DNA from: an uncultured Candidatus Binatia bacterium
GTDB lineage: Bacteria > Desulfobacterota > Binatia > DP-6
Direction of reading: 5' to 3'
Assembly (NCBI GenBank): GCA_964618895.1
Contig: CAZUDO010000056.1
Coordinates: forward strand, 104,744 to 168,743
DNA: 64,000 nt
The stretch's first letter is position 1, and the number at the start of each line of letters is the position of its first letter. This document shows positions 31,199 through 55,161 of the stretch, in pieces. Made by a program: the position numbers and the translations under genes. Under the pieces are notes generated by a model. It did no database searches. It saw nothing but the letters and a program-made list of their open reading frames with translations, and was not told the origin of the DNA.

Positions 31199-32047
31199 AT
31201 GATGGTGACGACACGCGACCTCGACGTCGACGGCATCCGGCTGCACGTGGCGGAGGCAGGGGAAGGCCCGGCACTGGTGCTCCTCCACGGCCTGTCGGCC
31301 ACGCACGCCAACTGGGAGCACACCATTCCGGCGTTCGCCGACCGCTGGCGCGTGATCGCGCCGGACCTGCCCGGGCACGGCCGGTCGGCCAAGCCGGATG
31401 CGCCGTACAGCATCGACTTCTATGCCGGCGTGATCCGGAGCCTCGGGCGCGCCCTCGGCGTGCACGAGGCGGTGGTGGTCGGGAACTCGCTCGGGGGGCA
31501 GATCGCGATCGAGCTGGCGCTGTCCTACCCGACGTGGACGCGCGCCCTGGTGCTCGCCGCGCCGGCGGGAAGCTTCGGGCCGCTGCGTGTCCTCGGCCCG
31601 GTGCTGGGGGTGGTCACGCCGCCGGCGGTGCTCCGCTTCAGTCTGCCGCGGACGCTCGAACGCTGCTTCTACGACCACGCGCATCCGGCGCTCGACATGC
31701 GCCGGCGTATTCTGGCCGAACGGCTCGCCGCGGCGGACTTCCCCGACTTCGCCCGCGCGGTGTCGCGGTCGATCACAGGCGCGCTGCGCGGGAGCGGTCA
31801 GCCCCTGGAGCGTCTGACGCAGCCGACGCTCCTGGTCTGGGGTCGCGACGATCGCACGCTGCCGCTCTGGAACAGCCGATGGTTCCTCCGCGCCGTTCCG
31901 CACGCCCGCTTCGTGGCGCTGGAGCGCTGCGGGCACCTGCCGATGCTCGAACACGCGAGTCACTTCAATCGCCTGATGGCGGAGTTCCTGTGCGCCGTGG
32001 CGGCGGCCCCCCTGCCGGGGGCACGGCGCGCCAGCGGGGACACCTGA
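31199..32047 (+). CDS. Alpha/beta-fold hydrolase
   Basis: Nucleophile elbow GNSLGG, the HGxP-type motif LLHGLSATHANW, and C-terminal catalytic His in ERCGHLPMLE. Confidence 0.85.
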   Translation: MMVTTRDLDVDGIRLHVAEAGEGPALVLLHGLSATHANWEHTIPAFADRWRVIAPDLPGHGRSAKPDAPYSIDFYAGVIRSLGRALGVHEAVVVGNSLGGQIAIELALSYPTWTRALVLAAPAGSFGPLRVLGPVLGVVTPPAVLRFSLPRTLERCFYDHAHPALDMRRRILAERLAAADFPDFARAVSRSITGALRGSGQPLERLTQPTLLVWGRDDRTLPLWNSRWFLRAVPHARFVALERCGHLPMLEHASHFNRLMAEFLCAVAAAPLPGARRASGDT

Positions 32048-32457
32048 TGTTCGTCATCGAGAAGCCGATGCCCGCCGTCACCGAGGACGGCGCGCCGTAC
32101 TGGGAGGGCTGCCGCCAGGGCGTGCTGCGCGCGCAGCGCTGCACGGCGTGCCGGCACGTACGCTGGCCGCCGAGCGTGCTGTGCCCGAAGTGTCTGGCCG
32201 ACGGCACCGAGTGGATCGCGCTGTCGGGCCGCGGGGCCATCTATTCGTTCATCGTCGTACACCGGCCGCAACATCCGGCGTTCTTCGCCGACGCGCCCTA
32301 CAACGTCGCCATCGTCGAGCTGGCCGAGGGCATCCGGCTGCACGCCAGCATCGTCGACTGTCCGAACGAGGCCCTCCAGGTCGGGATGCCGGTCGAGGTC
32401 GTCTTCGACAAGGTGAACGACGAGGTGACGCTGCCTCGCTTCCGGCCCCGGCGGTAG
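32047..32457 (+). CDS. DUF35 protein (Zn-ribbon plus OB-fold; thiolase/aldolase partner subunit)
   Basis: CTACRHVRWPPSVLCPKCL rubredoxin-like C4 ribbon followed by an OB-fold (GRGAIYSFIVVH...); 136 aa; its ATG overlaps the hydrolase stop. Confidence 0.8.
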   Translation: MFVIEKPMPAVTEDGAPYWEGCRQGVLRAQRCTACRHVRWPPSVLCPKCLADGTEWIALSGRGAIYSFIVVHRPQHPAFFADAPYNVAIVELAEGIRLHASIVDCPNEALQVGMPVEVVFDKVNDEVTLPRFRPRR

Positions 32458-32474
32458 AAAGCGCACGTCGGCCC

Positions 32475-34775
32475 GTGTCGCGCCGCCCGGTCCTCGCCAT
32501 CTTCACCCTCTCGGGGGCGGCGGGGCTCGTCTATCAGGTGATCTGGGCGCGCCAGCTCGGCCTCGTCTTCGGCAACACCACCGCGTCGGTCACCATCGTC
32601 CTGGCGGCCTTCATGGCAGGGCTCGCGCTCGGGGCCGAGTGGGCGGGACGGGTGCTCGTCCGGCGGGCGAACCCGCTCCGGGTGTACGCCGTCCTCGAGG
32701 CGGCCATCGGCCTGTACGCCCTGGCCTTCGGCCCGCTGGTGAGCGGCCTCGAGACGCTCTACCCGCATCTCCTGAGCGACACCGCCTCGCCCGTCGTGCT
32801 GACGCTGGTGCGCTCCGTGGTCGCCTTCGGACTCGTGCTCCTGCCGACCACCTGCATGGGCGCCACCCTGCCGCTGACGACCGAGTATCTGCACCGGCTC
32901 GCGCTTGCCCATACCGACTGGAACGCCGGACGACTCTACGCCGCCAACACCCTCGGGTCGGCGCTCGGGTCGGTGGCCAGCGGGTTCGTGCTGATCGAGC
33001 TGGTGGGGATCGCCAACACGACGCGGATTGCTGCCGGCTTCAACGTGGTCGTGGGACTGCTCGGCTGGTGGCTCGCGCGCGGCCTCGCGCCGGCGAGCAC
33101 CCCGGCGACGCCCGCCGCCCCGGCGGCCGGCCAGCGGACTCTGCTCCTCCTGTTCGCGATCACAGGGGCGCTCGCGCTCGCCGGGGAGGTGCTGTGGACG
33201 CGCGCACTCACGCTGCTGCTCGGGAGCTCGACGTACGCCTTCAGCGGCATCCTGGTCGTGTACCTGGTCGGCATCGCATTCGGGAGCTGGGTTGCGGCCG
33301 GGATGGTTCGCCGGCTCGCCGCGCCCGAGCGATTCATCCCGCTCGCGATCCTGGGGGCCGGTGCGTGGCATGCCTTCGCCGTGACGCTGTTCGCCCCCCT
33401 GCACGCCCTGGTGCTCGGCCTGCTGGCGGCGACGCTGCAACCGATGTCGCCGGCCCAGTTCTACGCCCGTGCCGTTGCCACCCTGGTCGCCGTGCTCGGG
33501 GTGATGGTGCCGCCGGCGGCGCTGAGCGGGGCGCTGTTCCCGCTCGTCACCCGACTGCTCGAGGGCGACGCGGGCGATCGCGGCGCGCCCATCGCGCGCG
33601 CCTACACCTGGAACACGGTGGGCGCGATCGTCGGCTCGCTGGTCGGGGGCTTCGCCATCGCGCCGTTCTTCGTGCACTTCCATGCCATCGACGTGCTCGC
33701 GCTCTGCTTCCTCGGGGCCGCGCTCTGCGCCCTCGGGGTGATCGGCTGGCGAGCCTTCCCGATCGTGACCGGCGTGACGGTCGTGGGGGCGCTGGCGGTG
33801 ACGGCCCTCTCGGTGCAGCGGCTGCAGCGCCCGGACGCGTTCGTCACCCTCTACCGCCAGCGGCGACCCGCCTACGAGGTGCGCAGCCACGAGCCGGGCC
33901 TGCAGGGCATCACGACGGTGGCGTGGGACCGGGGCAAGCCCGAGCAGTCCGCCCAGCTGCTGGTGAACGGCGTCGGCATGACGGTGAAGGCGTTCGCCAC
34001 CAAGGCAATGGCGCACCTCCCCATCATCGCCCACGGCGCGGCCGAGGACGTGCTCGTGATCTGCTTCGGGATGGGGACGACGTTCCGCTCGGCGCTCACC
34101 CACGGCGGGCGTGTCGACGTGGTGGAGCTCACCCCCGGGGTATTCGGCGCCTTCGATGCGTTCTACGCCGATGCGGCCGAGGTCCGCCAGAACCCGCGCG
34201 GCCGCATGATCGTGAACGACGGGCGCAATTTCCTGCTCCTCACCGACAAACGCTACGACGTGATCACGCTCGATCCTCCGCCGCCCATCGATGCCGCCGG
34301 CGTGAGTACCCTGTATACGCGCGAGTTCCTGGAGCTCATGCGCGCCCACCTCGAGCCGGGGGGCATCGTCGCGCACTGGCTGCCGCCGCTCGGGCGGGGC
34401 GGGGGGCTGTCGGACATCGGCGTGCTCGACATGCTGGCGGCAACGTTCCTGGACGTGTTCCCGCATGTCCGGGTGCTGGTGAGTCAGCCGTTCATGAACC
34501 GATCGGGGTTCCATCTCCTCGGGTCGGACGCGCCGATCGCGCTCGATCCCGAGCGCTTGACGCGTGCCCTCGAGAATCCCGCCGTCAAGCGCGACATGAT
34601 GGAGTTCGGATGGGACCCGCTGGTGCCCGAGCGCTTCTTCTTCGAGGTCAACCTCCACCGTGACCTGGCGGCCAAGAAGACCCTGCTCACGGACGATCGC
34701 CCGCTCCTCGAGTTCAACCTGATCCGCAACCTGCGTCTGGGGCTCGCGCCCGCCATGATCCGCGTCGCGCCGTGA
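32475..34775 (+). CDS. Fused polytopic membrane (MFS-like) / spermidine-synthase-like aminopropyltransferase protein
   Basis: N-terminal half with about 12 transmembrane segments; C-terminal PABS-like domain (VLVICFGMGTTF...VVELTPGV...VNDGRNFL...YDVITLDPPPP); GTG start chosen; about 766 aa. Confidence 0.75.
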   Translation: MSRRPVLAIFTLSGAAGLVYQVIWARQLGLVFGNTTASVTIVLAAFMAGLALGAEWAGRVLVRRANPLRVYAVLEAAIGLYALAFGPLVSGLETLYPHLLSDTASPVVLTLVRSVVAFGLVLLPTTCMGATLPLTTEYLHRLALAHTDWNAGRLYAANTLGSALGSVASGFVLIELVGIANTTRIAAGFNVVVGLLGWWLARGLAPASTPATPAAPAAGQRTLLLLFAITGALALAGEVLWTRALTLLLGSSTYAFSGILVVYLVGIAFGSWVAAGMVRRLAAPERFIPLAILGAGAWHAFAVTLFAPLHALVLGLLAATLQPMSPAQFYARAVATLVAVLGVMVPPAALSGALFPLVTRLLEGDAGDRGAPIARAYTWNTVGAIVGSLVGGFAIAPFFVHFHAIDVLALCFLGAALCALGVIGWRAFPIVTGVTVVGALAVTALSVQRLQRPDAFVTLYRQRRPAYEVRSHEPGLQGITTVAWDRGKPEQSAQLLVNGVGMTVKAFATKAMAHLPIIAHGAAEDVLVICFGMGTTFRSALTHGGRVDVVELTPGVFGAFDAFYADAAEVRQNPRGRMIVNDGRNFLLLTDKRYDVITLDPPPPIDAAGVSTLYTREFLELMRAHLEPGGIVAHWLPPLGRGGGLSDIGVLDMLAATFLDVFPHVRVLVSQPFMNRSGFHLLGSDAPIALDPERLTRALENPAVKRDMMEFGWDPLVPERFFFEVNLHRDLAAKKTLLTDDRPLLEFNLIRNLRLGLAPAMIRVAP

Positions 34776-34822: not shown

Positions 34823-36622
34823 GTGCAGAGCGCCTCGCGATCGAAGCGCGTCCGGCGGGCCACGCGCCTGGACCCCATCGTCACCGAGATCATTCTCGGC
34901 GCGTTCGAGACCATCTGCTACGAGATGGCGACGCACGTGAGCCTCACGGCCACGACGCCCATCCTGAACCAGTCGAACGAGCGCAACGCCACCATCCTGG
35001 ACGGCACCGGGCGGCTGGCTGCGCTGTCGGTCGGCATTCCGCAGTTCATGCTGTCGTCGACCCTGCCGGTGCGGTTCGCGGTCGACTTCTTCGGGCCGGA
35101 CGGCCTCTTCGACGGCGACGTGTTGCTCGCCAACGACCCGTACCACGGCGGCGGGCACCTGCCGGACTACAACGTGTTCGCGCCCGTCTTCCACGACGGC
35201 GCGTGCGTCCTCATCGCGTCCATCCAGTGCCACCACGCCGACACGGGGGGCGGCGCACCGGGGGGCTACAATGTGAACGCCCTCGACATCTGGGCCGAGG
35301 GCGTGCGCTTCCCCGCGGTCAAGATCTACGAGCGGGGCGTGCTGCGACGCGACGTCGAGTACATGATCGCGGCCAACAACCGTACCCCCACGTTCCTGGG
35401 CGATCTGCGCGCGCAGGTGGGGGCGGCCCAGCTGGGCGTGCAGCGCCTGACAGACATCCTGGCGCGCTTCGGGACCGACACCGTCGCTGGGGCCGTGCAG
35501 AGCATCATCGCCTACGCCAAGCGCCGCTTCCGCGACGAGGTGGCGCGCTGGCCGGATGGCGTCTACGAATCCGACACCTACGTCGACCACGACCCGCACG
35601 GCACGCCGGACATCCACGTCCACTGCAAAGTGACGGTGCGGGGGAGCGCGCTCACGCTCGACTTCACCGGCTCCGACGACCGCCCCGACATCCAGGCGTA
35701 CTCCACCTTCGGCAACACGCGCGGCTACGTGGTGGCGCAGCTGGCCTGCATGATGGACCCGAGCATCCCGAAAAACGAGGGCTTCTTCGACTCGATCGAC
35801 TTGATCGTGCCGAAGGGCTGCTGCCTCAACCCGCCCGACGGCCGCTCGGTGGCGGCGGGCACGCATCATCCCGGCACCGAGGTCGGCGAGGCGGTCGCCA
35901 AGGCGCTCGAACGGGTGGTGCCCGAGCGCAGCTGCCCGCAGGTCTACAAGATGGGCATGCCGACGGTCATCTTCGGTACCAACCCGCGCACCGGGAAGCT
36001 GTTCATCGACCACTCGGTCGACACCTTCGCGGCCTACTGCGGGGCGGTGAAGGGCCAGGACGGGTGGGGTGGCATGAACGTCTCGTTCGGCAACCTGATC
36101 CGCGCCACCGCCGAGATCAACGAGTCGATCTTTCCGGTCCGGCACCTGGCACGCGACTACGAGACCGACAGCGGCGGCGCCGGCGCCAACCGCGGCAACT
36201 GCGGCAGCCTCTACCGCAAGCAGATGCTGGTGCGGTCGACCATCTACACCTACGTGGTCGGCAAGCGGTACCCCATGCCAGGGATCGCCGGCGGTCACCC
36301 CGGCTCCGCCAACCGCCTCCTCGTCCGCGCCGGCGGCGCGCACGCCTTCGAGGTCGGCGATAAGGCCCAATACATCGAGCACGCCGCCGGCGAGTCCTAC
36401 GAGTACCACTACGGCGGCGGCGGCGGCTGGGGCGACCCCCTTGCCCGTCCCCCCGCGCGCGTCCTCGACGACGTCCTCGACGAGTACATCTCCATCGAAT
36501 CCGCCCGCCGCGACTACGGCGTCGTCCTGACCGGTACCCTCGAAGACCTCACCCTCGCCCTCGACGAACCAGCCACCACCCGCCTCCGCGCCGAGATGCA
36601 GGCCCACCGGGAGCGCGCGTGA
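34823..36622 (+). CDS. hyuB: Hydantoinase B / 5-oxoprolinase B / acetone-carboxylase alpha-like subunit
   Basis: DPIVTEIILGAFETICYEMATHV N-terminus and conserved HyuB blocks (NDPYHGGGHLPD, GDKAQYIEHAAGESYEYHYGGGGGWGDP); 599 aa. Confidence 0.85.
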   Translation: MQSASRSKRVRRATRLDPIVTEIILGAFETICYEMATHVSLTATTPILNQSNERNATILDGTGRLAALSVGIPQFMLSSTLPVRFAVDFFGPDGLFDGDVLLANDPYHGGGHLPDYNVFAPVFHDGACVLIASIQCHHADTGGGAPGGYNVNALDIWAEGVRFPAVKIYERGVLRRDVEYMIAANNRTPTFLGDLRAQVGAAQLGVQRLTDILARFGTDTVAGAVQSIIAYAKRRFRDEVARWPDGVYESDTYVDHDPHGTPDIHVHCKVTVRGSALTLDFTGSDDRPDIQAYSTFGNTRGYVVAQLACMMDPSIPKNEGFFDSIDLIVPKGCCLNPPDGRSVAAGTHHPGTEVGEAVAKALERVVPERSCPQVYKMGMPTVIFGTNPRTGKLFIDHSVDTFAAYCGAVKGQDGWGGMNVSFGNLIRATAEINESIFPVRHLARDYETDSGGAGANRGNCGSLYRKQMLVRSTIYTYVVGKRYPMPGIAGGHPGSANRLLVRAGGAHAFEVGDKAQYIEHAAGESYEYHYGGGGGWGDPLARPPARVLDDVLDEYISIESARRDYGVVLTGTLEDLTLALDEPATTRLRAEMQAHRERA

Positions 36623-36638
36623 TCCGTGCCGCTGCATG

Positions 36639-36765
36639 GCGGTCGGAGGGCGAGGGGCCGGGGTCGGAGCGCCTTGACGAGGCGAGCACGCGTGCTCACC
36701 CTGAGCGGCCCGTTCGGCTCGCCGAGGAGCGAAGCGGAGACCCCGGCCCCTCGCCCTCCGACCGC
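36639..36765. repeat. 28-bp perfect inverted repeat forming a long hairpin (about 71-nt loop with a nested palindrome)
   Basis: ggcggtcggagggcgaggggccggggtc (36639-36666) is the exact reverse complement of gaccccggcccctcgccctccgaccgcc (36738-36765). The loop contains gagcacgcgtgctc (7+7 palindrome) and a ttgacg motif. It lies between the hyuB stop and the yjbQ start. Confidence 0.65.
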
Positions 36766-36796
36766 CGACACGACGCGGGGCACGTGTAGGCGACCC

Positions 36797-37207
36797 ATGC
36801 GCGCCCACACCGAGTATCTGTGGTTCACGACCGGTGCCCGCCGCGAGCTGGTGAACATCACGGAGCGCCTCACCGCCATCGTCGAGAAGGCCCGCGTCGC
36901 CGAGGGCCTGTGCCTGGTGTCCGCCATGCACATCACGGCCGCGATCTGGGTGAACGACGAGGAGCCCGGCCTGAAGCAAGATCTCCTGGCGTGGCTCGAG
37001 CGCCTCGCTCCCGCCGGCGACTACCAGCACCACCAGACGGGCGAGGACAACGCCGACGCGCATCTGAAGCGCACGCTCATCCACCATCAGGTGATCCTGC
37101 CGGTGACGAAGGGCGCGCTCGACCTCGGGCCCTGGGAGCAGGTCTTCTATGCCGAGTTCGACGGGCAGCGGAAGAAACGCGTGGTCGTCAAAATCCTGGG
37201 GGAGTGA
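36797..37207 (+). CDS. yjbQ: YjbQ/UPF0047-family protein (secondary thiamine-phosphate synthase-like)
   Basis: 136 aa; [34 protein letters not shown]...[20 protein letters not shown] matches UPF0047; ATG 36797 preferred over an in-frame low-complexity extension that runs through the hairpin. Confidence 0.8.
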
Positions 37208-37211
37208 ACGC

Positions 37212-39278
37212 GTGCGCACGGGCTATCGCATCGGTATCGACGTCGGGGGTACGTTCACGGACCTGGTACTGGTCGCCCCGGACGGCCGCCTGGTCATCGA
37301 CAAGCACCTGACCACGCCTGCCGACCAGTCTGCCGGCGTGCTCGGCGGCATCGGGCAGCTCGCCGCGCGCGAGGGGAAGACGCCGGACGCCCTCCTCGCC
37401 GCCACCACGCTCATCGTGCACGGCACCACCACCGCCGACAACACGATGATCGAGATGTCGGGGGCCACCACCGGGCTGATCACGTCCGACGGCCATCGCG
37501 ACGAGATCGAGATCCGCCGCGGCTTCAAGGAGAACATCTGGGACCCGGCGCAGCCGCCCCCGCCGGCGATCTGTCCGCGCCGCCGCCGCTACGGGGTGCC
37601 GGAGCGGCTCGACTTCGAGGGCAACGTCATTACCCCGCTCGACGAGGAGGCCGTCCGTCGCGCGTGCCGGCGGATGAAGCTGCAGGGCGTCGATTCGCTC
37701 GCGATCGTGTTCCTGTTCTCGTTCGTGGACTCGGCCCACGAGCGGCGCGCGCGAGAGATCGCTCGCGAAGAGCTGCCGGGGGTGATGCTGTCGCTGTCCC
37801 ACGAGGTGATGCCGTCGGCACCGGAGTTCGAGCGTACGTCGACCACGTTGGTGAACGCGTACGTGGGACCCAGGATCGAGCGCTATCTCGCGTGCCTCGA
37901 CGAGCGGCTGCGCGGCGCGGGGTTCCGGGGCGAGCTGCTCATCATGCAATCGAACGGCGGCGTCATGCCGGGCGGCTACGTGGCGCAGAAGGCGGTGGCG
38001 GTGATGGGTTCGGGCCCAGCCGGTGGGGTGATGGGGGCGACGGCGGTCGCCGGCGCGGTCAAGATCACCGACTTCATCTCCGTCGACATGGGCGGGACCA
38101 GCTACGACGTGTGCCTGGTGCGCGGCGGGACCCCGGAGGTGAAGACGGGCTGGAACTGGCACCATCGCTACCTGATCGGGCTGCCGATGGTCGAGGTGCA
38201 GTCGGTGGGTGCCGGCGGCGGCTCGATCGCGCGCGTGGAGTCGGGAGCGCTCAAGGTGGGGCCGCAGAGCGCGGGCGCGCAACCCGGGCCGGTGTGTTAC
38301 GGGCGCGGCGGTGTGGAGCCGACGGTCACCGATGCCAACGTGACCCTCGGCTATCTCAATCCCGCCAGCTTCTGCGGCGGCACGATGCAGCTCGACATCG
38401 AGGGCGCGCACGCGGCCATCGCGACCCGGGTGGCGAAGCCGCTCGGACTGTCCGTGATCGAGGCGGCCGAGGGCATCTTCCGGTTGGTGAACGCCAACAT
38501 GGCGAACGCCGTCCGGCGCATCTCCGCCGGGCGCGGCATCGACCCGCGCCCGCTCACGCTGGTCGTCTTCGGCGGCAACGGGCCGGTGCACGCCGGCATG
38601 CAGGCCGCCGAGCTCGGCATCCGCCGCATCCTCGTCCCCAAGCTGTCGCCGGCGTTCTCGGCGCTCGGCCTCCTGCTCACCGACCACGTTGTCGACGAGA
38701 TGCGCTCGTACATCAGCCCGGTCTCCCAGATCGACCTGAGGCGCGTGAATGCCCTCCTGGCCGACATGGAGACGGCGGCCACGGCGGCGCTCGGGAGCGG
38801 GAACGGCAAGCGCCGGGTGCGCCTCGAGCGCATGGCCGCCCTCTGCTACCCGGGCCAGACCTTCGACATGCCGGTGCCGCTCCCGGCGCGCGGCGGGCCG
38901 GTGACCGCGCGCGGGCTGGCCGACACCGTCGAGCGTTTCCACCGCCTGCATGAAGAACTGCACACGTATGCCAGCCGCGACCAGGAGCCGATCCTGCGCG
39001 GCCTGCGTCTGAAGGCCGTGGCGGTGGAAGTGAAACCCGCGTTGCCACGCATCGCCCGCAAGGGTCGGGGGAATGCCCGCGTCGGAGCCCGCAAGGCCTA
39101 TTTCAACGGCCGGGTCGTTGCCACGCCCGTGTACGATGGGCCGCAGCTCACACCGGGCCGGACCATCCTCGGCCCCGCCATCGTCGAGGAGCCGTTCACG
39201 AGCATCGTGGTGTACCCGGGGCAGCGTGCCAGCGTCGACCCGTTCGGCAACTACGCGATCACCGTCGGGCGCGGGTAG
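37212..39278 (+). CDS. hyuA: Hydantoinase A / oxoprolinase A / acetone-carboxylase beta-like subunit
   Basis: IGIDVGGTFTDLVL N-terminal ASKHA motif; HGTTTADN; SVDMGGTSYDV second ATPase motif; GTG start 4 bp after the yjbQ stop; 688 aa. Confidence 0.85.
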   Translation: MRTGYRIGIDVGGTFTDLVLVAPDGRLVIDKHLTTPADQSAGVLGGIGQLAAREGKTPDALLAATTLIVHGTTTADNTMIEMSGATTGLITSDGHRDEIEIRRGFKENIWDPAQPPPPAICPRRRRYGVPERLDFEGNVITPLDEEAVRRACRRMKLQGVDSLAIVFLFSFVDSAHERRAREIAREELPGVMLSLSHEVMPSAPEFERTSTTLVNAYVGPRIERYLACLDERLRGAGFRGELLIMQSNGGVMPGGYVAQKAVAVMGSGPAGGVMGATAVAGAVKITDFISVDMGGTSYDVCLVRGGTPEVKTGWNWHHRYLIGLPMVEVQSVGAGGGSIARVESGALKVGPQSAGAQPGPVCYGRGGVEPTVTDANVTLGYLNPASFCGGTMQLDIEGAHAAIATRVAKPLGLSVIEAAEGIFRLVNANMANAVRRISAGRGIDPRPLTLVVFGGNGPVHAGMQAAELGIRRILVPKLSPAFSALGLLLTDHVVDEMRSYISPVSQIDLRRVNALLADMETAATAALGSGNGKRRVRLERMAALCYPGQTFDMPVPLPARGGPVTARGLADTVERFHRLHEELHTYASRDQEPILRGLRLKAVAVEVKPALPRIARKGRGNARVGARKAYFNGRVVATPVYDGPQLTPGRTILGPAIVEEPFTSIVVYPGQRASVDPFGNYAITVGRG

Positions 39279-40196: not shown

Positions 40197-40694
40197 ATGA
40201 GCAAGCCGAGCGACGACAGCGTCACGACGTTCGAGAGCCTCGGCGACACGCTCCGCGCGGCGCGCAAGCTCGCCACCGACCTCGCCGACGAGCCGCTGTT
40301 CGCGCGCTTAGTGAAGGTGTTCCAGGCCATGCCGGCGGAGGATCGCGCCACCGTGATCGACGCCATGGAGCGGGACGTGTACGCGCGCCTGCTCAGCCGC
40401 GCGACCGAGAAGGTCACCGGGCAGGCGGCGCGTCCCAATCCCCATGCCCGGCTCTACGTGCGCTCCCACGGCCCGGAGATGCGGCGCGAGGACCTGGAGC
40501 AGACGGAAATGACGCAGGCCACGCTGCGTGCCATCCGCGTGATGCCGTTCCTGATGATCCCGGAGATCTACGCCGAGTGGCAGCGCGCGACGCATGACGC
40601 CGTGGCACGTACCACGCCCGAGGAGCGCGCCCTGGTGCAGAAACTCGTCGAGGACGTGCTGGGGATGCTGGCGGAGGCGTCGACCCCGGCGTAG
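40197..40694 (+). CDS. Hypothetical protein
   Basis: A 165-aa ORF (MSKPSDDSVTTFESLGDTLRAARKLATDL...) with no recognisable domain; the ATG follows the upstream divergent region. Confidence 0.5.
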   Translation: MSKPSDDSVTTFESLGDTLRAARKLATDLADEPLFARLVKVFQAMPAEDRATVIDAMERDVYARLLSRATEKVTGQAARPNPHARLYVRSHGPEMRREDLEQTEMTQATLRAIRVMPFLMIPEIYAEWQRATHDAVARTTPEERALVQKLVEDVLGMLAEASTPA

Positions 40695-40699
40695 CTAGG

Positions 40700-40826
40700 A
40701 GAGCGACCCGAGACTCCGTCTCGGGTCGTGTACGGACGGCGAGCATGCGGCCCGGTCGACAGGCCAAACGGCGTGCCGCGGCCGGCATTCGCCTGATCCC
40801 CCGGCAAGGAGTCTTGGGTCGATCTC
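40700..40826. repeat. Second, truncated copy of the pilT-pilB palindromic repeat family
   Basis: Shares gacccgagac-tccg-tctcgggtcg (perfect 10-bp hairpin), cgtgccgcggccggc, and the terminal gagtcttgggtcgatctc with the element at 1497-1797; again ends immediately before a minus-strand stop codon (cta at 40827-40829). Confidence 0.55.
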
Positions 40827-49124: not shown

Positions 49125-49281
49125 GTTTGCCCGTCACCGCCCGGCTCGAGGGCCGGAAATCTGCGGGATGACGAAAGATTTCCATTGACTACGTGTGCGG
49201 CAGTCATGGTAACCATCCCGGGTGGCCCGGCGGGTTGTACCTGGCAGGTGCGACCTGCGGGCGATGGACAGGGAGATACCC

Positions 49282-52200
49282 ATGGGCGATCGGCGTCTTA
49301 CTGCCACGGGGCATCCTCGACGGGGGTGGGGAAGGTCCCTCGTGCATCTCGCGGTGCTCGTGGCCGTGGGGGTGTCTGTTCGGCCCGCGACCGGAACGCC
49401 CGCGCCGCAGATACTGAGCGACATCCACCCCACCGGCACCTCGACATCCACCCGGCTGGTCGGGGTCGGCAGCACGTACTTCTTCCAGGCCGACGACGGC
49501 GTCAACGCCCGCGAGCTCTGGAAAACGGATGGCACCGGCGCCGGCACGACCCTGGTCGCCGACATCTGGCCCGGGGGAGGGGCGCCGGGTTCGCAACCGG
49601 CGAACGTCGTCAACCTCGGCGGCACGGCGGTGTTCGCGGCCGACGATGGCACCAACGGCCGCGAGCTGTGGACCAGCAACGGGACCGCCGGCGGCACCGC
49701 CTTGCTGGTCGACATCCGCCCCGGCGCGAGCGGGTCGTCGCCCAACTTCCTGGTCACCATCGGCAGCCTGGTGTTCTTCTCGGCCGACGACGGTAGCAAC
49801 GGCCGCGAGCTGTGGACGAGCGACGGGACCGCCGGTGGCACTGCGTTGCTGGCCGACATCCGCCCGGGCGCGGCCGCGTCGTCGCCGTCGAACCTGGTTG
49901 CCGTCGGCACCCGACTCTTCTTCACCGCCGACGACGGCACCAACGGCGTCGAGCTGTGGACGAGCGACGGCACGGGGCTCGGCACGGTCCTGGTGAAGGA
50001 CATCGTCGCGGGCGCGAGCGGGTCGTCGCCGTCCAATCTGGTGGCGGTCGGCGGGCAGCTCTACTTCGCGGCCTCCGACTCTACCAACGGCAACGAGCTC
50101 TGGACCAGCGACGGCACGACGGTCGGCACCGTGCTGGTGAAGAACATTCGCGCCGGGTCCTCCAGCTCGGCGCCGTCGAGCCTGGTCGACTTCGGTGGCA
50201 CGCTCGTCTTCTCTGCCGACGACGGCGTGGTCGGGCGCGAATTGTGGAAGAGCAACGGGACGGCGGCTGGGACCGTGCTCGTGAAGGACATCTTCACCGG
50301 CGCGTCCGCGTCCTCGCCGGCGAACCCGACGGCGATCGGCACGACGCTGTTCTTCTCCGCCAGCACGGGCAGCGGCACCGAGCTGTGGACGAGCGACGGC
50401 ACGGCGGGCGGGACGGTGCTGGTGAAGGACATCGCCCCGGGCAGTCCCAGCTCGTCCCCGGCGCAGCTCGCCGCGGTCGGCTCCATCCTCTACTTCCGCG
50501 CCACCGACGGTACCAACGGCGCCGAGCTGTGGCAGAGCGACGGCACGGCCGCCGGAACGGTCATGGTCGCGAACATCGCCCCCGGGGCGGCCTCGTCGAC
50601 GCCCACCAACCTCTCCGTCGGGGCCGGCACGCTGTTCTTCGCTGCCGACGACGGCGTACGGGCCAACGAGCCGTGGGTGCTGCTCGCGTCGTGCGGTAAT
50701 GGTGCGCTCAACCCCGGCGAGGCCTGCGACGACGGCAACGCCGTCGACACGGACGCCTGCAGCAACGACTGTACGCTCACCGGCTGCGGCAACGGCGTGG
50801 TCGCGGGTGCGGAGGAGTGCGACGACGGCAACCAGGCGGCGGGCGATTGCTGCGCCCCGACGTGCACGTTCGAGAGCAGCGGCAGTGCCTGCGCCTCCGA
50901 CCTCGACGCCTGCACGGACGACGAGTGCGACGGCGCCGGCGCGTGCACGCATCCGCCGGCCGCGGCCGGTACGCCGTGCGGGGATCCGGGCGTCTCGCCG
51001 TGTGACGCGGCCGACAGCTGCGACGGCGCCGGGACGTGCGACCAGAACCTGGTGGCGGCGGGCACCCCGTGCCCCGACGACGGTCTGGCCTGCCGCCTGG
51101 ATCAGTGCGACGGCGCCGGCGCCTGCGACCATCCGCTGGCCGGTGCGGGGACCGGGTGCCGCCCGGTCGCGGGGGCGTGCGACGTTGCCGAGAGTTGCGA
51201 CGGTCTGGACGAGAACTGTCCGGCGGACGGTTTCGCGGCCGACACGGTGGTCTGCCGTCCCGCGGCCGGGCCGTGCGACGTGGACGAGCTGTGCACGGGG
51301 GCGAGCGCTGCGTGCCCCGCCGACGTGAAGAGCACCGCCCTCTGTCGCCCGAGTGCGGGCGACTGCGACGTCGACGAGTCCTGCGACGGCGTGAGCGACG
51401 CGTGTCCCGCGGACGGGTTCCAGTCGGGCACCGTCGTGTGCCGGCCGGCGGTCGGCCCGTGCGATGCCGCCGATACGTGTACCGGGACGAGCGCGTCGTG
51501 CCCCGCCGATGGCAAGAGCACGGCGGTCTGCCGTCCCGCCGCCGGCCCCTGCGATCTGATCGAGAGCTGCGACGGCGTGAGCGACGCCTGCCCGACCGAC
51601 GCGAAGAGCACCGGCATGTGCCGTCCCGTGGCGGGCGCGTGCGATGTGGCGGAGACCTGTGACGGCGGCAGCGACGACTGTCCGGTGGACACGTTCGAGG
51701 CCGCGGGTACGGAGTGTCGTCCAGCCCTCGGCATCTGCGATCTGCCCGAGTTCTGCTCCGGCACCGAGGCCCCGTGTCCCACCGACGTGACCGTGGCCGA
51801 TGGTACCCCGTGCGACGATGCCAGTGTCTGCACCCAGAGCGACGCCTGCCTGGCCGGCGCGTGCGTGGGCACGTCCCTCGATTGCGACGACGGGAACCCG
51901 TGCACGCAGGATACGTGCGACCAGGGGAACGGCTGCGAGAACGAGACCGCCCCCGCCACCGGCTGCCGGGGTGCGCTCACGTCGAAGCTGATTTTCAAAC
52001 GCAACCCGATCGACCACACCAAGGACCTGCTCAAATGGGTATGGGCCAAGGGCCAGGCCACGACCCTCGCGGAGCTGGGGACGCCGATCACCACCACCGA
52101 CTACGACCTGTGCGTCTACGACGGCACCAATCAGGTGCTCGCCCGCGTACACGTGCCGGGGGGGTCGAGCGCGTGGGCGGCGTTGGGGAACGCCGGCTTC

Positions 52201-52455
52201 CGCTACAAGGACGTGACGACCGCCAGCGACGGCGCCCGCAACCTGGTGGTGAAGAGCGGGCTCACCAACAAGGCCAAAGTGGCGTTCACGGGCAAGGGCA
52301 CGAATCTGCCCGATCCGCCCGCGGGCGCGCTCACCCTGCCGATCACGACACAGGTCACGAACGGGACCGTGTGCTTCGAGGGCACGTACGCCCCGGCGCA
52401 CGTGATCCTGAACGACGCCACCCGGTTCTCGGCCAAGGTCGTCCCGGCGCCGTAG
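49282..52455 (+). CDS. Large secreted ELWxxDG-repeat (beta-propeller) protein with a C-terminal array of Myxococcales cysteine-rich repeats and a distal beta-rich domain
   Basis: Signal peptide; eight 48-aa repeats of the form ELWTSDGTAGGTxLVxDIxPGxxxSSPxxLxxVGxxLFFxAxDGxNG; then CGNGxxxPGExCDDGN and DxCDGxGxCxH repeats (the pattern described for Myxococcales Cys-rich repeats); start at ATG 49282 with a GGGAGA RBS (alternative 49264). Confidence 0.8.
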   Translation: MGDRRLTATGHPRRGWGRSLVHLAVLVAVGVSVRPATGTPAPQILSDIHPTGTSTSTRLVGVGSTYFFQADDGVNARELWKTDGTGAGTTLVADIWPGGGAPGSQPANVVNLGGTAVFAADDGTNGRELWTSNGTAGGTALLVDIRPGASGSSPNFLVTIGSLVFFSADDGSNGRELWTSDGTAGGTALLADIRPGAAASSPSNLVAVGTRLFFTADDGTNGVELWTSDGTGLGTVLVKDIVAGASGSSPSNLVAVGGQLYFAASDSTNGNELWTSDGTTVGTVLVKNIRAGSSSSAPSSLVDFGGTLVFSADDGVVGRELWKSNGTAAGTVLVKDIFTGASASSPANPTAIGTTLFFSASTGSGTELWTSDGTAGGTVLVKDIAPGSPSSSPAQLAAVGSILYFRATDGTNGAELWQSDGTAAGTVMVANIAPGAASSTPTNLSVGAGTLFFAADDGVRANEPWVLLASCGNGALNPGEACDDGNAVDTDACSNDCTLTGCGNGVVAGAEECDDGNQAAGDCCAPTCTFESSGSACASDLDACTDDECDGAGACTHPPAAAGTPCGDPGVSPCDAADSCDGAGTCDQNLVAAGTPCPDDGLACRLDQCDGAGACDHPLAGAGTGCRPVAGACDVAESCDGLDENCPADGFAADTVVCRPAAGPCDVDELCTGASAACPADVKSTALCRPSAGDCDVDESCDGVSDACPADGFQSGTVVCRPAVGPCDAADTCTGTSASCPADGKSTAVCRPAAGPCDLIESCDGVSDACPTDAKSTGMCRPVAGACDVAETCDGGSDDCPVDTFEAAGTECRPALGICDLPEFCSGTEAPCPTDVTVADGTPCDDASVCTQSDACLAGACVGTSLDCDDGNPCTQDTCDQGNGCENETAPATGCRGALTSKLIFKRNPIDHTKDLLKWVWAKGQATTLAELGTPITTTDYDLCVYDGTNQVLARVHVPGGSSAWAALGNAGFRYKDVTTASDGARNLVVKSGLTNKAKVAFTGKGTNLPDPPAGALTLPITTQVTNGTVCFEGTYAPAHVILNDATRFSAKVVPAP
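49513..50680. repeat. Intragenic array of about eight diverged 144-bp (48-aa) ELWxxDG repeats
   Basis: The periodicity is visible in the translation (ELWKTDGT..., ELWTSNGT..., ELWTSDGT... x6); the DNA copies are diverged (protein-level repeats). Confidence 0.7.
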
Positions 52456-52515
52456 CGTGTTGTTCGTATGACGGGGCACGGTCGGGCGCGCGCCCAGGGC
52501 GGGCTCCAGGGGGGG

Positions 52516-55161
52516 ATGGCCATGGGTGCAGTACGCGTCCTCGGTGTCGCGGTGGTGCTGGCCGCCGGGTTCGTGGCGCGGCCTGTCCGCGCGGCCGTGC
52601 TCGCCGAGTCGATCAGCGTCTCGGGCGACAGCATCGCCCGCGGCTACGACGCCAACACCAGCGCGTGCAACTACGGCGACAACGTCTCCCGCAACTGGGC
52701 CACCGGCGACACCCACGGCGGCAGCTTCTGCGCGGCGGGCGGCGAGGGCACCTTCAGCCACGCCGAGCGCCTCGAATGCGCCAAGGGCGGCAACGTCACC
52801 ATCTTCAACGACGCGGCCAGCGGCGCCGACATGCTGAGCGACTTCTACAACCAGGCGGTCAACATCAAGCTGAACCTCTCGTCGTCACTGGCGCCGCGCT
52901 ACGTGCCGGTGTTCATGGGCCACAACGACATCTGCACCAACACCGAGACCAGAACCGGCAACGCCTGCGGCGGCGACGACGACCCGAACAACTACTGCCG
53001 CACCGCCCCGGCGGCCTTCGAGCGCGAGTTCCGCCGTGGCATGGACCAGCTGATCCAGATCCCAAGCGTCCGCATCGGCGTATCGGCGGTGGTGCGCGTC
53101 TCCGAGCTGTGCAACTTTACCGGCAAGAGCGGCTGTGGGATCACGCTCGGCCTGCCGTGCAGCTCGGTGTGGGGTCTGGTCGACATCTGCGCCTCGCTCA
53201 CCAAGGACTGCTCGAACCAGCGGCGCATCGACGCGTATCTGACGGCGCTGGCGTACAACCAGATCCTGGAGGTGGTGACGGCCGAGTATGCTGCCATCTC
53301 CACGGGCGGGATGTCGCTCACCGGCGCGGTCAAGGCGCCCGACGTGGCCATCCGCTACAGCGAAGGCGCGTTCTTCTTCAAGTTCGCGAGCGCCGACGTG
53401 TCGTGTTGCGACTGCTTCCATCCCTCCGACCTGGGGCAATCGAAGATGGCGCAGTTCGGCTGGGACGGTCTGCAGTGCAGCGGCACCACGCCCTGCTGCG
53501 GGACCAGCGGCGATCCGCTCACGGACGCGATGTGCTCGCTGGTCGACACGGCGACGTTCTACCCGTCGGGCTTCTGGCCCGGCGGCATGCCGTGCGGCAA
53601 CGGCATTCTGGATCCCATGGAGCAGTGCGACGACGGCAACGCCCTCGACGGCGACTGCTGCTCGTCGTCGTGTACCTTCGATCCGGGCGGCACCCCGTGC
53701 GCGAGCGACGGCAACGTGTGCACGGACGACGTGTGCAACCCGACCGGCGGCTGCACCCATCCCGCCAATGCCGCGCCGTGTGGCGACGGGTTCTTCTGCA
53801 CCGTCAACGACACGTGCAGCGGCGGATCGTGCGCCGGCACGGCGCGCGACTGCTCCAGCGCCGGCAATCAGTGCAACGTCGGCGTCTGCGACGAAGCGCA
53901 GGACCAGTGCGTCGCGCAGCCAGTGTCGAACGGGACCGGCTGCATCGACGGCGACGCGTGTACGCAGACCGACACCTGCCAGAACGGGACGTGTACGGGC
54001 GCGAACCCCGTGGTGTGTACGGCCCAGGACCAGTGCCACGACGCCGGCACGTGCAATCCGCTGACAGGCGTGTGCTCGAACCCGGCCAAGGCGAACGGGA
54101 CCGCGTGTGCCGACGGCGACGCGTGTACGCAGACCGACACCTGCCAGGGCGGGACGTGTACGGGCGCGAACCCCGTGGTGTGTACGGCCCAGGACCAGTG
54201 TCACGACGCCGGCACGTGCAATCCCCTGACCGGTGGGTGCTCCAACCCGGCCAAGGCGAACGGGACGGCGTGCACGGACGGTGACGCGTGCACGCAGACC
54301 GACACCTGCCAGGCCGGGACCTGTACGGGCACGAACCCCGTCGTGTGCACCGCCCAGAACCAGTGTCACGACGCCGGCACGTGCAATCCGGGGACGGGCG
54401 TGTGCTCCAATCCGGCCAAGCCGGACGGCAGTGCCTGTAGCGACGGCAACGCGTGCACGGCCGCCGACCAGTGTGTCGCCGGCGTGTGCCAGGGCGGGGC
54501 GCCGCCGTGCGGCGACGGGATCGTGCAGGCCAGCTGCGGCGAGCAGTGCGACGACGGCGCTGCCAACGGCACGAACCAGTGCTGTTCGGCCACCTGCCAA
54601 CGGGTCGACGGCGACGGCGACGGCCTCTGCAACCGCGACGACCCGTGCACCGGCCTGGCCGGGCTGATCAAGCAGCGCATCACCATCACGCGTCTCGATA
54701 CGCCGCCCGGCGACGACCGCTTGAGCATCAAGGGCGACGGCATCCTGCCGTTCCCCTTCGCGCCGGCGCTCAACCCGATCGCGAACGGCGCCCGCCTGCT
54801 GGTCGAGCGTACAGGGGGCACCCTCGTCGATGTGACCCTGCCGGGCCTGGCGTGGACCGGCACCGTCGGCTGGCGCGTCAACGCCGCTGGCAACACGTTC
54901 ACGTGGACCGACAAGACGACCACGCCGCCGGGCGGTATCACGCGCTTCAAGGTCAAGCAGGTGGCGGCCACGCCGGGGCTGGTGCAGGTACGGGCCAAGG
55001 GGCTCGGGTCGTACAGCGTCACCGTCGGCGACCTGCCGCTCCGATTCACGGCCGTGCTCGACCCGCCGACCGCCGAGACGGGGCAGTGCGGCGAGGCGAC
55101 GTTCCCGGGGCCCCTGCCCCCGAGCTGTGTGCTGGTGGCGGCGAAGCTGACCTGTAAGTAG
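52516..55161 (+). CDS. Secreted SGNH/GDSL-type hydrolase fused to Myxococcales cysteine-rich repeats and a C-terminal beta domain
   Basis: Signal peptide; block I GDSIARGYD (catalytic Ser); block III GHNDIC; block V DCFHPSDLG (Asp/His); then CGNGILDPMEQCDDGN plus three tandem CTQTDTCQxGTCTGANPVVCTAQDQCHDAGTCNP repeats. Confidence 0.8.
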   Translation: MAMGAVRVLGVAVVLAAGFVARPVRAAVLAESISVSGDSIARGYDANTSACNYGDNVSRNWATGDTHGGSFCAAGGEGTFSHAERLECAKGGNVTIFNDAASGADMLSDFYNQAVNIKLNLSSSLAPRYVPVFMGHNDICTNTETRTGNACGGDDDPNNYCRTAPAAFEREFRRGMDQLIQIPSVRIGVSAVVRVSELCNFTGKSGCGITLGLPCSSVWGLVDICASLTKDCSNQRRIDAYLTALAYNQILEVVTAEYAAISTGGMSLTGAVKAPDVAIRYSEGAFFFKFASADVSCCDCFHPSDLGQSKMAQFGWDGLQCSGTTPCCGTSGDPLTDAMCSLVDTATFYPSGFWPGGMPCGNGILDPMEQCDDGNALDGDCCSSSCTFDPGGTPCASDGNVCTDDVCNPTGGCTHPANAAPCGDGFFCTVNDTCSGGSCAGTARDCSSAGNQCNVGVCDEAQDQCVAQPVSNGTGCIDGDACTQTDTCQNGTCTGANPVVCTAQDQCHDAGTCNPLTGVCSNPAKANGTACADGDACTQTDTCQGGTCTGANPVVCTAQDQCHDAGTCNPLTGGCSNPAKANGTACTDGDACTQTDTCQAGTCTGTNPVVCTAQNQCHDAGTCNPGTGVCSNPAKPDGSACSDGNACTAADQCVAGVCQGGAPPCGDGIVQASCGEQCDDGAANGTNQCCSATCQRVDGDGDGLCNRDDPCTGLAGLIKQRITITRLDTPPGDDRLSIKGDGILPFPFAPALNPIANGARLLVERTGGTLVDVTLPGLAWTGTVGWRVNAAGNTFTWTDKTTTPPGGITRFKVKQVAATPGLVQVRAKGLGSYSVTVGDLPLRFTAVLDPPTAETGQCGEATFPGPLPPSCVLVAAKLTCK
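53947..54441. repeat. Three near-identical tandem 165-bp (55-aa) coding repeats
   Basis: gacggcgacgcgtgtacgcagaccgacacctgccag...ggcgaacgggac(c/g)gcgtg(t/c)(gcc/acg) recurs at 53947, 54112 and 54277 with more than 90% identity (DGDACTQTDTCQxGTCTGANPVVCTAQDQCHDAGTCNPLTGxCSNPAKANGTAC). Confidence 0.85.

Follow-up and report, generated by a model that had tools for sequence, protein, structure and literature searches.

A 28-bp perfect inverted repeat between hyuB and yjbQ in a Binatia-type bacterium: a young insertion and possible mobile hairpin element

Results

A hairpin with perfect 28-nt arms

The gap between hyuB and yjbQ in the window (the whole 64-kb stretch of DNA that was analyzed, with a GC content of approximately 70%) holds a hairpin of 129 nt in total, found in a repeat search of the window and made up of two 28-nt arms and the 73 nt between them. 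We favor, with some reservation, the possibility that this is a young non-coding insertion, likely a non-autonomous MITE/REPIN-type hairpin, that remains polymorphic for presence and absence, is co-transcribed with its neighbors and uncouples hyuB from yjbQ-hyuA; we would give this reading slightly less than an even chance.

The left arm, GGCGGTCGGAGGGCGAGGGGCCGGGGTC, occupies 36638-36665 on the + strand, is free of any internal palindrome and is complementary at 28 of 28 positions (100%) to the right arm at 36739-36766 (+ strand coordinates). The first-pass annotation had judged this repeat to be far beyond chance, and we agree: the longest perfect inverted repeat within a 400-nt span was 12-17 nt in 100 first-order-Markov shuffles of the window, and the arm 28-mer occurs at two sites in the window, both of which are the arms of the element, where none is expected in shuffles. 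The coordinates first assigned to it (36639-36765, for a 127-bp element with a 71-nt loop) captured the repeat but fell one base short at each end, the true extent being 36638-36766, with 73 nt between the arms and 129 nt overall. Comparison within the window also confirmed that its sequence is unrelated to that of the pilT-pilB repeat, from which it had been set apart. As RNA, the hairpin is predicted to fold at -110 kcal/mol on the + strand and -108.7 kcal/mol on the - strand, with z approximately -9.

Gene context and coding status

The three genes concerned all lie on the + strand. The hairpin begins 15 nt past the stop codon of hyuB (34823-36622; Hydantoinase_B/oxoprolinase family, PF02538, E 2e-126; stop TGA at 36620-36622) and ends 30 nt ahead of the start of yjbQ (36797-37207; UPF0047, PF01894). 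These 30 nt (36767-36796, + strand) constitute the native spacer before yjbQ; they are 100% shared with an independent Logan contig (SRR15166932_105325, 3,030 nt; hereafter L001) and carry a weak AGG Shine-Dalgarno sequence at 36788-36790 that remains free of the hairpin when the fold is predicted. Four nt after yjbQ comes hyuA (37212-39278; Hydantoinase_A family, PF01968/PF05378/PF19278), for which the gene call was made on L001. The relatives of HyuB at 75-88% identity all come from metagenome-assembled genomes (MAGs) labelled Candidatus Binatia or 'Deltaproteobacteria bacterium', which makes the host an uncultured bacterium of Binatia type; its species is absent from the GTDB representatives that were searched. 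Upstream of hyuB, an open reading frame at 31977-34775 (up to 932 aa) has a recognizable domain only at its C-terminus, similar to spermine/spermidine synthases, and its N-terminal two thirds are without a Pfam match.

An in-frame extension of yjbQ runs upstream through the hairpin, and the suggestion that the region is nevertheless non-coding is borne out by two independent contigs, on which yjbQ starts at the ATG corresponding to 36797 and the upstream extension has not been kept. The YjbQ protein called on L001 is the identical 136 aa and that on a second contig, L055, is at least 90% identical, with the extension removed or replaced on both; the L001 call, an identical product from an independent contig, is our reason for taking the extension to be non-coding. 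In addition, the four open frames of the element, searched in concatenated form against 5.8 billion proteins, gave no match at E <= 10. Gene callers could mistakenly extend yjbQ through the element.

The interior of the element

The 73-nt spacer between the arms (36666-36738, + strand, as delimited by sequence reading and folds) is laid out symmetrically on direct reading, with 15 nt unpaired on each side, a 7-bp inner stem (GGCGAGC / GCTCGCC, 36681-36687 / 36717-36723, + strand) and a 29-nt apex. A 14-nt palindrome, GAGCACGCGTGCTC, lies at 36684-36697 (+ strand) and is counted with the apex. This palindrome had been singled out as a feature of the loop; it is indeed present, but it is not special, as the window contains 12 perfect 14-nt palindromes, which is the density expected by chance. 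Nor did the description of the loop as structured hold up, the spacer on its own folding no better than its shuffles (z -0.45 and -0.09).

The same can be said of two regulatory readings. The TTGACG that had been likened to a -35 element is present at 36674-36679, but it has no -10 partner and a consensus scan gave no sigma-70 promoter. The hairpin had likewise been considered as a terminator, a reading that found no support: a Rho-independent terminator is a GC-rich stem-loop with a U-tract directly after it, but neither strand has a U-tract or T-run after the stem and the consensus scan gave no terminator-like site. An integron attC or dif site was rejected as well, sequence reading having turned up no GTTRRRY core and no XerC/D half-sites. 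Over the whole window Rfam 15 gave no match at the gathering threshold, and below threshold returned only generic GC-rich miRNA-hairpin models (21-29 bits versus thresholds of 72-97). Two minor repeats were seen inside the element: a direct repeat, GGTCGGAG(G/C)GC, at 36641-36651 and 36662-36672 in its left half, the copies being 21 nt (two helical turns) apart, and GGAGCG at 36666 and 36726, which is a direct and not an inverted repeat within the two 15-nt mismatched stretches.

Filled and empty sites

L001 is 100% identical to the window over 35708-36626 and 36757-38871 (919 + 2115 nt) and is without 134 nt of it, the two blocks overlapping by TCCG (alignment and blastn). The absent segment, at 36623-36756 on the + strand (ambiguous in phase by 4 nt, that is, up to 36627-36760), begins directly after the hyuB stop codon, takes in an 11-nt left flank, the left arm in full and the whole spacer, and stops 18-22 nt into the right arm. 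The left junction copy of TCCG is at 36623-36626 (+ strand) and is separated from the left arm by the 11 nt TGCCGCTGCAT (36627-36637, + strand), which are part of what L001 lacks. The right junction copy is at 36757-36760 (+ strand), within the right arm, whose last 6-10 nt, (TCCG)ACCGCC at 36757-36766, are kept in L001. The presence/absence junction is offset from the ends of the inverted repeat: its sole repeat, TCCG, sits 12 nt beyond the left arm on one side and within the right arm on the other, and does not flank the arms. We found no target-site duplication either, the flanks CTGCAT and GACACG sharing no direct repeat. Folded as single-stranded DNA, the absent 134 nt form a hairpin with a 5' tail made of the 11 nt TGCCGCTGCAT and the first 10 nt of the left arm; by sequence reading, this tail contains GGCGGTCGGA, which is complementary to TCCGACCGCC left behind at the empty site.

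The hairpin was found in none of the related loci that were compared, and an nhmmer search for it across 825 kb of these loci was negative. In L055, the closest other relative (its YjbQ falls in the same 90% cluster), the spacer between hyuB and yjbQ is 20 nt; it is 42 nt in L015 and approximately 50 nt in L051, hyuB and yjbQ overlap (TGATG) in L028, and at least one extra gene is present at this position in L002-L006, L010, L012, L013, L018 and L050. The comparison of orthologous loci that the first-pass annotation had proposed thus places the hairpin in no relative and sets it against an identical contig that is missing 134 nt. It argues that the hairpin is a young, lineage-specific insertion into a short (approximately 40 nt) hyuB-yjbQ spacer, our reasoning being that: (i) presence in no relative implies a recent gain confined to this lineage and (ii) arms that are still perfect have not decayed, which fits a young age.

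The polymorphism between L001 and the window is of the kind seen with MITE insertions, although the empty site could be a secondary deletion. A spacer alignment of L001, L015, L051 and L055 favored neither insertion nor deletion, as these sequences offer too little length and are GC-rich; an 8-mer, GACCGCCG, is shared with L051, with an estimated chance probability of approximately 0.07. The hairpin is straddled by approximately 30 microhomologies of 4 nt or more, among which TCCG does not rank as the longest. Slippage promoted by the hairpin in vivo or polymerase jumping in the library PCR, at one of these microhomologies, could equally account for the absence in L001. Whether L001 is ancestral or deleted, the sequence comparison implies that the element had to be inserted in this lineage.

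We also considered whether the hairpin is a remnant of the extra gene that some relatives carry between hyuB and yjbQ and rejected this: there is no DNA similarity, the tblastx matches are low-complexity noise spread across one locus, and the region of that locus with the best tblastx match holds no comparable repeat. The hyuB-hyuA interval (36620-37212 in the window, compared with loci L002-L051) changes in gene content unusually often in Binatia and can be called a hot spot of such change; we saw hyuB-hyuA adjacent, hyuB-yjbQ-hyuA, hyuB-cupin-yjbQ, hyuB-RidA-like-yjbQ, hyuB-RidA-like-GNAT-hyuA and multi-kb insertions. In L026, L050 and L051 ('MFD...' MAGs) the hyuB matches are split into several frames, like the frameshift errors of long-read assemblies, and gene calls there are unreliable.

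Searches for further copies and for a transposase

No second copy of the element was found in the 64-kb window (exact 28-mer, blastn-short and nhmmer) or in the 825 kb of related Binatia loci, which were scanned with nhmmer (--max) and, for the arm, with a tolerance of up to 5 mismatches. An exact arm 22-mer had no match in GTDB representative genomes (596 Gb) and a single match in JGI metagenomes, which we attribute to chance because it is inside an open reading frame and has no partner arm. IMG/VR gave no match for the arm and none for a 25-mer of the spacer, and blastn against plasmid and phage collections returned nothing. The genome-wide search for the 28-mer, proposed earlier as a check and carried out here as an arm search of the window and public genome collections, thus produced no further genuine copy. 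The suggestion that the repeat might represent a second MITE family fares accordingly: the hairpin is still best read as a small inserted element, but a family finds no backing in the window, the related loci, GTDB, JGI or the viral, plasmid and phage sets. Judged by the refuting condition that the first-pass annotation had set, namely that the element be missing from all other loci and genomes, these sets leave the family reading half refuted. Finally, no transposase or RAYT domain (Pfam) was detected in approximately 58 GC3-selected open reading frames of the window.

Discussion

A candidate mobile hairpin element

The size of the element and its symmetric layout are usual for elements of the MITE/REPIN type, and its perfect 28/28 arms and lack of coding capacity fit this reading. 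A MITE is expected to have terminal inverted repeats, to be shorter than approximately 300 bp and to be non-coding, and the element described here is a non-coding 129 nt with arms matching at all 28 positions; similarly, it shares with REPINs two inverted ends, a spacer between them and a long extragenic hairpin. The host context is compatible with mobility in that the window carries another hairpin repeat family, a REP-like palindrome that is also present in a relative. Multi-copy status is the hallmark of a mobile family, and the single copy known from the sets searched counts against the mobile-element reading. As known now, the element would have to be described as a single, unconserved insertion and a minor one. 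Were it mobile, the uncultured phylum Binatota would join the groups with hairpin-type miniature elements (MITE/REPIN-like), and its filled/empty pair, with an asymmetric junction, would inform how hairpin elements integrate.

The closest precedent comes from the REPINs of Pseudomonas fluorescens SBW25, which are REP doublets mobilized by RAYT (PMC3116915; PMC3337134). Like the Binatia element, these are extragenic, approximately 100-130 nt long and built from two conserved inverted ends around a less conserved spacer of approximately 70 nt, so as to form a long hairpin. The similarity may extend to the way in which sequence is lost. In the REPIN excisions that Bertels & Rainey (2011, PMC3116915) described from P. 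fluorescens reads, everything from the left end onward is lost except for approximately the last 6 bp of the right end. The lost DNA folds into a hairpin whose 5' tail is the complement of this remnant; the explanation given by the authors was a single-strand intermediate of the IS200/IS605-like kind, with possible pairing of its tail to the target. The asymmetric difference between our two alleles likewise leaves approximately 6 bp of the right end in place, and the absent piece has a 5' tail complementary to that remnant. The residual ACCGCC or TCCGACCGCC together with the complementary tail matches the geometry of REPIN excision, although similar products arise from slippage or PCR jumping and the left break falls beyond the arm.

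We do not claim membership in the REPINs, and see here a resemblance in workings by analogy, because: (i) the arms are without the short palindrome of REP sequences (on their own they fold at shuffle level, with z values of -0.26 and -0.47, and the left arm is G-rich with no complementary run); (ii) the left break is 11-15 nt outside the left arm and not at its start; (iii) there is no RAYT in the window, where REPINs go with a single-copy RAYT gene that the repeats flank, and (iv) the tens to hundreds of copies typical of REPINs are not in evidence. The host also differs, being of a Binatia-type lineage and not a proteobacterium.

There is further precedent in the Correia/nemis MITEs of Neisseria (PMC2649163; review PMC10969869). 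These are elements of approximately 100-160 bp with 26-28-bp terminal inverted repeats that reside in intergenic positions inside transcription units, differ in presence or absence between near-identical genomes and yield a transcribed hairpin that is a potential substrate for RNase III, all of which resembles the present case. Correia elements differ in that their repeats are flanked by a TA target duplication, their copies number in the hundreds, and both IHF sites and promoter elements are present; in the Binatia element the arms are not flanked by the 4-nt repeat, a single copy is known and there is no promoter or AT-rich site. Binding to RNase III and cutting by it are also described for Correia elements (PMC2649163).

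On the reading of the element as mobile, it would move, or be lost, as an asymmetric unit consisting of the hairpin and a 5' single-stranded tail. A more specific version, which we regard as speculative and rather improbable, is that Binatia have a hairpin transposon family of their own, moving in the form of single-stranded hairpins, of which this element is the first to be observed; the 5' tail would pick the target by pairing over 6-10 nt (here TCCGACCGCC), and insertion would restore the 28-bp stem. We know of no demonstration that a target is chosen by tail pairing, which has been proposed for REPINs. If this version were true, the alleles of the window and L001 would be a natural before-and-after pair of the reaction.

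Predicted effect on the transcript

The genes hyuB, yjbQ and hyuA share one orientation and lie close together, and proteins of the HyuA/HyuB type normally work as partners, so that co-transcription is to be expected. Read-through from hyuB into yjbQ-hyuA would produce an RNA carrying the 28-bp perfect duplex, and the stem would remove the translational coupling found in relatives such as L028; in relatives the two genes are either coupled in translation or only a short distance apart, and here a 28-bp perfect stem parts them. If transcribed, the hairpin probably uncouples hyuB from yjbQ-hyuA. The stem would also serve as a 3'-exonuclease barrier and/or a substrate for RNase III, splitting the hyuB mRNA from that of yjbQ-hyuA. 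An RNA processing site is plausible: RNase III-type hairpins are expected to have at least approximately 20 bp of uninterrupted double-stranded RNA within a co-transcribed region, and the predicted stem of 28 bp would be long enough if the region is co-transcribed.

A well-known parallel is provided by the REP/BIME hairpins of E. coli, such as that between malE and malF, which stabilize the upstream mRNA by blocking 3'-5' exonucleases. As with the Binatia hairpin, these are stable stem-loops without a U-tract between cistrons of one operon, and an exonuclease block would be expected in both cases. REP stems are approximately 12-15 bp and highly repeated, however, whereas the present stem is 28 bp, perfect, single-copy and unconserved.

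Alternative explanations

A one-off event is a distinctly weaker possibility than a mobile element but one that deserves consideration. The 134 nt would in this case be filler from double-strand-break repair or from a template switch at the 4-nt TCCG microhomology, in which a long inverted repeat is present by accident, with no dedicated function. The single copy in every search, the 4-nt microhomology at the junction and the location of that junction away from the repeat ends are all what such an event would leave behind. There is also a hint of local template use in an 11-nt match, CCCTCGCCCTC, between the right arm (36748-36758) and the 3' end of hyuB (36552-36562). The complement of this 11-mer lies in the left arm at 36646-36656; its estimated chance probability is approximately 0.05 and it may be a coincidence. 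Against random filler, a perfect 28-bp repeat with a symmetric interior (15/15 nt and a 7-bp stem) would be unexpected, neither the window nor the related loci yielded a donor sequence, and the 10-nt complementarity between the inserted 5' part and the retained flank would need an extra coincidence.

It is also possible, if unlikely, that the hairpin is a fixed functional intercistronic RNA element, a stabilizer or processing site that tunes the ratio of hyuB to yjbQ-hyuA, and that the empty contig L001 is a deletion artefact of slippage or PCR jumping. Palindromes are unstable, being prone to hairpin-stimulated slipped-strand deletion between short direct repeats, and hairpins are hot spots for microhomology deletions. 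As in slippage of this kind, L001 is missing the greater part of the hairpin and has a 4-nt direct repeat at the break, and many alternative microhomologies straddle the hairpin; the direct repeats, however, are off the base of the stem, 12 nt beyond it on one side and 7-10 bp within the stem on the other, and slippage explains only the loss in L001 and not the origin of the element. A function in the RNA would be in keeping with the extreme stability of the hairpin, its position 15 nt past a stop codon in a co-oriented cluster and the fact that the ribosome-binding region of yjbQ is left free. Set against this, the hairpin is conserved in no relative, where the position holds 0-50 nt or another gene; perfect arms without compensatory variation offer no evidence of covariation; it belongs to no Rfam family; and so recent a gain would still require an insertion as its origin.

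The two remaining explanations are, in our estimation, very improbable. A protein-binding operator or a Rho-independent terminator (including the 'I-shaped' kind) would draw on the long dyad symmetry and the 21-nt spacing of the direct repeat GGTCGGAG(G/C)GC in the left half, yet there is no U-tract or terminator-like site, the flanking genes are co-oriented with hyuA/hyuB products that normally work together, the sequence is not conserved, and known operators do not look like 28-bp arms set around a 73-nt spacer. An assembly artefact of the window contig, with the hairpin absent from the organism, would account for the independent assembly of identical sequence without it and would not be out of place in what is apparently a metagenome-assembled genome, but it is disfavored because 84 nt of the sequence (11-nt flank plus 73-nt spacer) are unique, non-palindromic and without a source elsewhere in the window; moreover, palindromic assembler artefacts are usually found at contig ends, where they duplicate neighboring sequence, and the arms are shorter than usual assembler k-mers.

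Other repeats in the window

The window contains a second genuine repeat family, based on the REP-like palindrome CGACCCGAGAC-NNN-GTCTCGGGTCG. At 1504-1792 two of these palindromes, in inverted orientation, form the ends of a 289-nt hairpin (80-nt arms, 96% complementary) located between two genes for ATPases of the T2SSE/PilB-PilT type, an architecture that is REPIN-like. A shorter relative of approximately 125 nt, at 40700-40822, lies after a gene whose end is at 40694 and has GTGCCGCGGCCGGC and the terminal AGTCTTGGGTCGATCTC in common with it, and the same REP-like palindrome is found directly after hyuA in a related MAG (L050, 14758-14782). Repeats of a different kind occur at 49213-55161, where two very large open reading frames contain tandem Cys-rich repeats with periods of 144, 165 and 186 nt; these have disintegrin-like/DUF4215 matches and a GDSL lipase domain, and they are repeat-rich secreted proteins of a kind typical of myxobacteria-like lineages.
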